A DNA stretch of 64,000 bases, taken from contig OX597835.1 of assembly GCA_951406725.2 (NCBI GenBank), positions 2,666,001 to 2,730,000 of the forward strand, written 5' to 3'. Both the position numbers and the translations under genes were made by a program. The DNA comes from Octopus vulgaris. Lineage: Eukaryota. Shown in pieces: positions 39,644 to 46,208 of this stretch; positions within the stretch are counted from its first letter, which is position 1; each line of letters opens with the position of its first letter. The notes below the pieces were generated by a model. That model did not search any database. It was not told where the DNA came from and saw nothing but the letters and a program-made list of their open reading frames with translations.

Positions 39644-39812
39644 ATAGGCGTAGGAATGGCTGTGTAGTAAGTAGCTTGCTTACCAACCGCATTGTTTCGG
39701 GTTCAGTCCCTACTGTGTGGCACCTTGGGCAAGTATCTTCTACTATAGCCTCGGGTTGACCAAAGCCTTGTGAGTGGATTTCGTAGGCGGAAACTGAAAG
39801 AAGCCCGTCGTA

Positions 39813-44130: not shown

Positions 44131-45230
44131 TAAAACATCCCATTGTATATTAAACGTGCGATATCCATAGCCTCCACCACTAGACGGATATTCAATCGCA
44201 GCCCACAGGGGATTATCACCTCACTAAGTTTCGGATTAATATGGTTTGTGATGTTTGGCTTGGTTCCTAATTAATTTGTCTTCAGCAAATTAAAACTAAC
44301 AGCAAAGTTTTAAACGCGCAAACATTTACGTATATATGTATGTACGTATGGACACATTTACAGATACACAGAAGAACGCATACACACACACACACACACA
44401 CATATACACAAGAATACATAGGTGCAAGACCATATATGCACACACGCTGAGATGCATATACACATGTTTACAAATACATAGATGCACACATATACAAACA
44501 TTCATAGATATTTAGATATTTACGCACAGGTATATAAATGTATATTTTACATGCATGAATAGTGGTTACTAACGTCGGAGCTTGTTTGGACAGTTCCGTC
44601 TATGACAGTCGATCGGATGAGTGTAAGGCAATATGTATCTTCCTGTGTGTAATTAGATGTGAATGGGAACAACGGTTTGGGAAACAGATGTAAAAGGTGG
44701 TTCTGGCATTGTATTGGAGATTGTGTTCCTATAATTTCTGGTCTTAATTTGAGATCGCTTGGTCGTAAAATCTGCATTGTTCATTTATAACTGTATTTCT
44801 GAGATTTTTTTCATGGATCATAGTCAAATCGCTTTCTGTAATTTTGAAACTGCATAAAAGGTCCATTTCTTTATCCTTAATGTAGTCTGAGCATTGTTTA
44901 ATTAATGTTCTGGTTTTGGCAATTGTGCCTTAATTAGCAGAAATATGTCCAACTTCACCCTTTTTTGAGGAAGTGACAAACACTTAGGTCGATAGATTGA
45001 CACGATGTATAAATTTCCATGTGGGACTCATAAATGTAAAGAATCCTTCGTAAAAAAGTGGTTCTACTGCCACTGAAAATTGATCAGTAAATTATCTTAA
45101 AGAAGATGAGACGGATGAAGCAATAGTTATTATGAACAGATGTTCATTATAAAAACAGGATATTAAAACAACATAACTGACTAAAAAGTATTATAACGAA
45201 GAAATGAAAAAACACTCCTGCGCCTATGAG

Positions 45231-45327
45231 AAAAAATACGGAATGCTTCACGGATTTGCTGCTGTCCTTGCGCAGGGGCCATGCTAATCTTCTCTGTAAC
45301 GTTCCAATTTTAGAATATGTACCGCCG
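45231..45327 (-). pseudogene. RNU6: U6 snRNA-derived copy, 5'-truncated or diverged
   Basis: The reverse complement reads CGGCGGTACATATTCTAAAATTGGAACGTTACAGAGAAGATTAGCATGGCCCCTGCGCAAGGACAGCAGCAAATCCGTGAAGCATTCCGTATTTTTT. The ACAGAGA box and AGC triad are intact, the 3' side of the ISL is altered, and the first ~10 nt are missing. Confidence 0.92.
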
Positions 45328-45381
45328 TATTCACTATGATGCAAGCTTCCAATTCAAATTCATAATAATGAGAGTGAATGT

Positions 45382-45808
45382 CGCAGGAGTGGCTGTGTGG
45401 TAAGTAGCTTGCTAACCAACCACATGGTTTCGGGTTCAGTCCCACTGCGTGGCATCTTGGGCAAGTGTCTTCTTCTATAGCCCCGGGCCGACCAATGCCT
45501 TGTGAGTGGATTTGGTAGACGGAAACTGAAAGAAGCCTGTGGTATATATGTATATATATATATATATGTGTGTGTGTATGTGTGTGTGTTTGTGTGTGTG
45601 TTTTTGTCCCACTAGCATTGCTTGACAACCGATGCTGGTGTGTTTACGTCCCCGTCACTTAGCGGTTCACCAAAAGAACTGATAGAATAAGTACTGGGCT
45701 TACAAAGAATAAGTACCGGGGTCGATTTGCTCGACTAAAAGGCGGTGCTCCAGCATGGCCGCAGTCAAATGACTGAAACAAGTAAAAGAGTAAAAGAGAG
45801 TAAAGAGA
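45382..45808 (+). mobile_element. SINE family A, young, near full length
   Basis: CGCAGGAGTGGCTGTGTGG through to the AGTAAAAG tail. Confidence 0.9.
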
Positions 45809-46208
45809 GAAAGTGAAGGGAATCTGCAAAAGCAGTGAGAAAAGCTACGTGAAGTAGAAGCGAACATTATACCCCAGTGACGCAACGTTCTTCATGAGTT
45901 CAATGACGTAATTTTCTTACAAGGAAGTTTTCATTTAGAAACATTTGTGAATAGAGCCATACATGACAGCGAGCACTCTTTATCTACGCAGCATCCGCCT
46001 TGCCCATCATTGATACACAAACTTACAAAATATGAAAAATGTCATTTCTGCTCAATTCCCTGGCTTCAATATTTCAATTTAATTACTTGCTCGGACAGCA
46101 AAAGGCGAATCAAATCAGGCACCAACGAAGACACAGAACACATTCCAAGAGTATTTTTCCTTTAATTCAATACGCCATGTTTCATTTTATTCATTATTTA
46201 TCTGTCCC

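Follow-up and report, generated by a model that had tools for sequence, protein, structure and literature searches.

The locus described here is a dead U6 snRNA copy fused to nucleotides (nt) 1–15 of SINE family A (SINE A), which stands head-to-head with a nearly complete SINE A inside a dispersed repeat, termed repeat X. U6-SINE chimeras are a known kind, and the octopus locus, situated in a 64-kb stretch of Octopus vulgaris DNA analyzed as a whole (hereafter the window), is real and is another member. As a single locus it is a dead relic; its value lies in the family of precise end-to-end joints across the genome. As far as the literature searched shows, this family extends U6/SINE chimeras beyond vertebrates, and as a large natural set with 5′-complete partners it bears on the choice between reverse transcriptase (RT) jumping and RNA ligation, since ligation needs a 5′-OH end. 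The family further illustrates how new SINE heads (U6-SINE, tRNA-SINE, and U6-5S joints) can be sampled without becoming families.

A U6-SINE chimera inside repeat X

The features of the locus, in window coordinates, are as follows.

44556–44926, minus strand: Penelope-like relic, segment a (nhmmer E 1e-30; tblastn to amino acids 193–323 of an intact 775-aa RT + GIY-YIG open reading frame)
44918–45212, plus strand: Penelope-like relic, segment b, an upstream part of the element inverted relative to segment a (nhmmer E 9e-25 at 44938–45203; tblastn to amino acids 94–135)
45213–45227, minus strand: SINE A stub, nt 1–15, 3′-truncated (from the sequence)
45228–45230, minus strand: 3-nt linker (CTC) between the U6 T tract and the SINE (from the sequence)
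45231–45329, minus strand: retrocopy of U6 snRNA that begins at nt 9 and ends in the T6 tract, 45236–45231 (Rfam; alignment with the local gene)
45330–45381, plus strand: the "leader", a 52-nt fragment of the unclassified ~400-nt repeat X (matches to dispersed X copies)
45382–45809, plus strand: SINE A copy of a young subfamily, nt 6 to the simple-repeat tail (sequence comparison)
45806–45845, plus strand: the stretch of repeat X that follows the leader, through to its 3′ end (colinearity by score against shuffles)

On the minus strand, the sequence runs from U6 through T6 and CTC into SINE A nt 1–15, in agreement with the earlier note, which had described a U6 ending in T6 and followed after 3 nt by the head of SINE A (45227–45213). 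No other sequence of the window reaches the Rfam gathering score; this U6 does so at 45232–45334 on the minus strand, with 82.3 bits (E 2e-19), and differs from the local U6 gene by seven substitutions and one gap; three of the seven substitutions occur in none of 76 other copies, and the remainder in 1–9 copies. Its T-tract end is joined to a retroposon in the same orientation, and the gene promoter and upstream flank are missing, with repeat X lying 5′ of the copy; both features are those of a U6/retroposon chimeric pseudogene. The plus-strand SINE A, which shows 12 differences in 347 nt from its subfamily majority, starts at nt 6, so that nt 6–15 occur twice in inverted orientation, in the minus-strand stub and from 45382 onward; the missing first bases and the inverted 10-nt repeat had both been recognized before. 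The fold of the stretch from stub to SINE consists of the 10-bp stem alone (z −0.46). The SINE A copy at 39644, offered earlier for comparison, differs from the stub 15-mer at two positions. No SINE A copy beginning at nt 16 is present left of the stub within the window. As had been remarked, no clear target site duplication (TSD) exists: a TSD test at the locus found no repeat between the end of the left flank and the post-tail DNA. The 3′ end of the chimera is lost here. No tRNA was predicted by ARAGORN within the window, nor did the SINE A and SINE B heads of loci L008 and L045 match a tRNA in Rfam.

The 52 nt between the two pieces had been read as an RNA leader of about 55 nt. The spacer exists, slightly shorter than stated, and matches a dispersed repeat (74 candidates, the best 40 of which were scored, at 83–95% identity). 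Repeat X is ~400 nt long and has an A-rich 3′ end, with 70–87% pairwise identity among copies (L161–L169). The DNA behind the tail of the plus SINE gives a mean score of 34.8 against eight X copies, compared to 18.2 ± 1.6 for shuffles, of which 0 of 2000 reach that value; the reverse-strand control for this continuation is not significant. Since the leader and the right flank are colinear parts of X, the leader is target DNA and the plus SINE interrupts X, which removes the single leader-U6-SINE RNA that the earlier note had taken as template. By eye, X resembles SINE nt 6–14 at the leader/SINE joint, which accounts for the plus SINE lacking its first 5 nt, and the leader stands 5′ of U6 in no other chimera inspected. 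X sequence upstream of the leader is missing from the whole 64-kb window. A separate SINE A lies a few nt from the same spot in one of the nine X copies inspected (L162). Other assignments of the leader were rejected: as a part of the Penelope-like element, it gives no significant match, whether 5′ of segment b (shuffles: 122 and 39 of 500) or in the gap between segments a and b (426 and 185 of 1000), and its weak match to locus L123 (28 of 1000) is likely due to chance.

U6 junctions across the genome

A DNA search of the 2.8-Gb genome gave 703 U6-like candidates, the best 40 of which were scored, and a 25-nt pattern representing the U6 3′ end has 210 exact matches (control 0). The sample comprised 97 of the first 100 matches along the genome, classed by script into SINE A heads (26), SINE B heads (7), a short tail module (23), a tandem gene cluster (7), U6-U6 (2), and other (32). 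By eye, the last class comprises nine tail modules, one SINE A, one SINE-like head, six joints to one further repeat, one U6-5S joint (Rfam), one gene, eight palindromic or shared-flank cases, and five unplaced ones. Class counts and reassignment by eye together place at least 73 of the 97 sampled U6 3′ ends on a mobile element.

The joints fall at the very beginning of the partner, within nt 1–4 in 24 of 26 cases for SINE A and in 7 of 7 for SINE B. When loci retrieved by a query containing the SINE head are counted in, 30 of 32 chimeras start at nt 1–4, versus 19 of 56 plain SINE A copies (p 2e-8; two misclassed chimeras were moved out of the plain set and one internal head dropped). Uninverted U6-SINE junctions, on whose existence elsewhere the earlier note had staked its reading, occur at many loci. 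Counted genome-wide, as had been suggested, the exact U6/SINE A junction pattern has 43 matches including this locus, versus 0 for the reversed control, and the junction here is therefore not a product of chance. Stand-alone SINE A heads, with 50,626 exact matches to a different pattern, are about a thousandfold more numerous than these 43 chimeras. Among 38 distinct loci, 26 junction spellings are found, linkers differ between chimeras, and several partner families take part, as expected of independently formed junctions. The notion of a U6-headed or read-through SINE master fails on these spellings and on the private mutations of the present copy. Given the many loci, the use of the partner's first bases, and the varied junctions, U6-SINE joints arise repeatedly.

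True U6 genes carry an octamer 75–78 nt upstream (at −78 in the gene cluster), which is found at that position in no U6 chimera. TSD-type repeats of at least 8 nt are present in 5 of 50 other chimeras, slightly above permutation (mean 1.15; 2 of 500 permutations reach 5), and most of the 50 are without a TSD.

The likely source of these joints, judged from their sequences, would be repeated end-to-end template jumping from the SINE 5′ end onto U6, with RNA ligation by RtcB as the alternative. Ligation by RtcB is strongly lowered by a 5′ triphosphate (PMC6789731), and as most partners retain an intact 5′ end, template jumping may fit better unless SINE RNAs are processed to 5′-OH. Template jumping by the R2 enzyme requires untemplated nucleotides (PMC8857657), which would fit the variable linkers. 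Insertion of a SINE at the 3′ end of a pre-existing U6 copy is not favored, as the repeats of at least 7 nt expected of it are seen at 3 of 50 loci.

Origin of the head-to-head arrangement

We lean toward two independent insertions 52 nt apart, together with a deletion-inversion, as the origin of the locus. In the first step, a LINE RT would reach the 5′ end of a SINE RNA and jump onto the oligo-U 3′ end of U6, and the product, U6-T(n)-few nt-SINE, would enter the minus strand of repeat X; the pattern is seen in the junctions above, and the mechanism is the presumed part. Second, at or after insertion, a deletion-inversion could have removed SINE nt 16 to the tail along with upstream X and, in the same event, flipped the 295-nt Penelope segment b, with its breakpoint at the stub end. 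Third, an ordinary SINE A would have entered the plus strand of X at a distance of 52 nt; the target is evident from the X sequence, and the independence of this event is presumed. The 10-nt inverted duplication would then be mere overlap, as the stub runs from nt 1 and its neighbor from nt 6.

Several observations argue for separate insertions: the colinearity of leader and right flank in X, the separate SINE A near the same X spot in L162, the frequency of head-to-head SINE A pairs given the 50,626 heads, the ordinariness of starts at nt 5–10 (12 of 59 plain SINE A copies), and the occurrence of stubs by other routes. Such pairs are indeed frequent, with 33, 44, 55, and 52 matches at spacers of 3–33, 34–64, 65–95, and 140–170 nt, the four windows searched, with 30 loci retrieved per spacer window. 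Of 30 other U6-SINE A chimeras, 2 likewise have an inverted SINE A within 500 nt on their upstream side. Stubs of other origin are exemplified by L294, in which the rest of the SINE follows 946 nt further on, and L315, in which SINE B comes next after the stub. Among ordinary SINE A heads, 1 of 80 ends within 30 nt and 3 of 80 within 41 nt, in a sample that requires SINE nt 4–19 to be intact and is thus blind to stubs shorter than 19 nt, whereas 4 of 5 long-spacer stubs and the stub of this locus measure 15–18 nt.

A single rearrangement would account for three losses at one junction, namely the stub, the missing upstream X, and the Penelope breakpoint, and it is likely that this rearrangement cut the fused SINE to a stub. 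Segment b runs on the plus strand from amino acid 94 onward over 295 nt, with its other end abutting the SINE stub; that end lies ~30 profile positions ahead of the segment a start, exactly at the stub end. Pfam found nothing on the two partial Penelope frames, and the intact relative (L400:1158–3485) encodes a 775-aa ORF with RVT_1 and GIY-YIG domains (Pfam). No close copy of the relic was found, the best being 73% identical, and the relic is thus likely older than the chimera and not inserted into it.

The relative age of the pieces is a further, weak point in favor of separate insertions. U6 differs at 8 of 93 positions and the plus SINE at 12 of 347 (p 0.044), weakly suggesting a greater age of the U6 piece; the p value becomes 0.23 when a cluster of four changes is taken as two events, and the divergences of U6 and SINE are barely correlated in 17 ordinary chimeras (rho 0.17). 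Against separate insertions, two or three events are needed within 200 nt; inverted stubs are enriched at SINE A 5′ ends, so that a one-event stub mechanism exists in the genome; the 10-nt overlap fits that of human L1 twin priming, with a median of 12 bp (PMC12016303); and neither an orthologous nor an empty allele was observed.

One complex insertion of a U6-SINE cDNA, by a hairpin or a twin-priming-like route, is possible but seems to us the less probable course. Reverse transcription at the plus site would copy the SINE and jump to U6, while the target end would anneal at nt 6; a cDNA flap would join the leader start to give a hairpin, opened 10 nt into the stem, or, in a variant, a second primer would copy the stretch between nt 15 and U6. 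At the other broken end, resection and partial inversion would come before joining. Under this scheme, a single event would yield the 10-nt overlap and a stub of this length and would also account for the loss of upstream X and the flip of Penelope segment b. Local genomic inversions and deletions on the reciprocal side of L1 insertions have been documented (bioRxiv 10.1101/2024.12.14.628481). A fold-back or twin-priming-like process does recur at SINE A 5′ ends. By script, stubs of up to 30 nt occur at 7 of 22 loci with 3–33-nt spacing versus 5 of 62 longer-spacer loci other than this one (p 0.012), and by eye, short stubs are found in 8 of 25 loci. Locus L251 has the same polarity as the present one, with a stub from nt 3 and a forward copy from nt 8. 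However, an extra step is required to keep 52 nt of target between the pieces, and such retained target is clear in none of the 62 other long-spacer pairs. The five stubs among them comprise one SINE split later by insertion, one with SINE B next to it, two with pure (TA)n spacers, and L188, the sole candidate. Furthermore, 5′ inversions of SINEs are rare, amounting to 0.02% in Alu (PMC12016303) or 1 of 5554 (PMC2912911), and the older look of the U6 part weighs slightly against a single event.

A broader statement, which we advance as speculative and rather doubtful, is that most U6 pseudogenes here could be U6 placed end-to-end with nt 1 of a complete SINE RNA or of a 55–70-nt tail RNA through LINE template jumping and not RtcB, and that the present locus could be a frozen hairpin intermediate, with 52 nt of target caught by the cDNA end and the flank inverted in the same repair.

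It is improbable that replication template switching later scrambled a plus-strand U6-SINE chimera, leaving U6 and SINE nt 1–15 in inverted orientation across the leader from their original place. An uninverted chimera of the same young subfamily does exist (L026, with 156 of 159 nt of the head identical), but three switches would be required. Plain inversion in place is excluded, as the orientation of the leader relative to the right flank is unchanged. An in-place-inverted chimera with a 6-nt TSD was likewise rejected on the colinearity of leader and right flank, and its TSD score was equalled by 1 of 50 other flanks.

An assembly artefact is very improbable. Both junctions around U6 are unbridged in independent data, in which contigs of runs X3–X6 on the left flank end before the stub junction, while contigs from organisms B and C are mostly paralogues or short pieces. 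Nevertheless, a contig from another individual (run X3, 44560–45168) spans the adjoining a/b inversion junction of the Penelope relic, and all parts of the locus carry private, aged mutations.

Twin priming on one RNA made up of leader, U6, and SINE, whether U6-headed or read-through, is scarcely credible, as its topology of U6 and SINE pieces with a 10-nt overlap stands against a leader that is colinear target DNA, heterogeneous junctions, and a T6 that is a Pol III terminator at the end of a U6 with no internal promoter, as is generally known (see also PMC4494074).

Relation to known systems and further observations

Vertebrate counterparts include U6-Mon-1 and U6-L2 in platypus, U6-AnolisSINE2 and U6-RTEX-2 in anole, and U6-RTESINE1 in opossum (Doucet et al. 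2015, PMC4476161). The octopus chimeras resemble these in the joining of the U6 T-tract end to a SINE or LINE whose tail ends in simple repeats, in the frequent 5′ truncation of U6, and in short or absent TSDs. They differ in belonging to an invertebrate and having several partner families. The octopus joints lie mostly at partner nt 1–4; the chimera section of that paper gives no joint positions within the SINE. Human U6/L1 chimeras, which have been catalogued (PMC11838501) and attributed to RNA ligation by RtcB (Moldovan et al. 2019, PMC6789731), likewise join a U6 ending in 4–8 T to a retroposon, with every junction independent; their partner is variably 5′-truncated, whereas the octopus partner is mostly 5′-complete.

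In classic twin priming, two cDNAs are placed directly together. The earlier note's comparison with this process holds for the topology of U6 and SINE and for the small overlap of 10 nt at the inversion point, and it fails on the 52 nt of colinear target DNA between cDNAs that should abut and derive from one RNA. As in L1 twin priming (PMC12016303, PMC2912911), an inverted 5′ piece, a forward 3′ piece, and a small overlap are present; unlike it, the locus retains target between the pieces, shows no TSD around the whole insert and no poly(A), and would be a very rare case for a SINE. The L1 insertions with local inversion and deletion (bioRxiv 10.1101/2024.12.14.628481) share with it an inverted flank and a small gap at the junction, but are somatic or experimental events, while the octopus locus is a germline relic.

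In SINEU of crocodilians (Kojima 2015, PMC4494074), an snRNA sequence also heads a retroposon. SINEU copies descend from masters, whereas octopus junctions differ copy by copy, with neither a common junction nor variants inherited from a master. The passages of PMC4758252 on snRNA heads mention SINEU only. For Octopus vulgaris itself, a repeat table contains a single "SINE/U" family, with 19 recent insertions, and a single "U-L1" family, which are left undiscussed in the accompanying passages (PMC13282606), and the supplements of that work may already hold octopus U6-SINE chimeras as families. The literature searched, with subscription papers outside its scope, contained no description of a U6-SINE chimera in molluscs, and "U6 snRNA" was not found among the cephalopod and mollusc papers listed.

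Further arrangements of U6 were observed. A tandem cluster at G000:C1:139.42–139.43 Mb (L038–L044) holds seven promoter-bearing U6 genes with one 5′ stem variant, and a second U6 variant with the octamer is present in L059 and L055, the latter with another U6 directly after it. Palindromic duplications centered on U6 occur at L071, L072, L078, L084, L110, L116, and L117, most with the 3′ flank, and one flank is common to L071, L072, and L098. A full 5S rRNA copy is joined to U6 at L081:1123–1347, and a triple tRNA-U6-U6 joint is found at L048:1364–1570. The palindrome at L190:1350–1800, with a tRNA copy and trailer joined to a SINE A head on both arms, is a tRNA-SINE chimera doubled by fold-back. 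Elements of 55–70 nt correspond to the last SINE tail module and have a common start position, with or without U6 (joints at L031, L036, L046, L047, L053, and others; stand-alone at L008, L110, L168, and L254); they are likely tiny retroposons or mark a processing site.

Among SINEs, inverted head stubs of 15–27 nt lie at the 5′ end of complete SINE A copies in both polarities (L230, L231, L239, L242, L244, L251, L252, and L255). Tandem arrays of SINE A head pieces are present at G000:C30:5.512 Mb (L258–L259) and G000:C1:2101874–2102790. At L030, L089, and L315, SINE A head pieces are followed directly by SINE B or repeated heads, a pattern that suggests jumping or slippage close to the start of the SINE. 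Finally, an open frame of the 775-aa Penelope-like length is listed at about 10 places, which suggests that the Penelope-like element was recently active.
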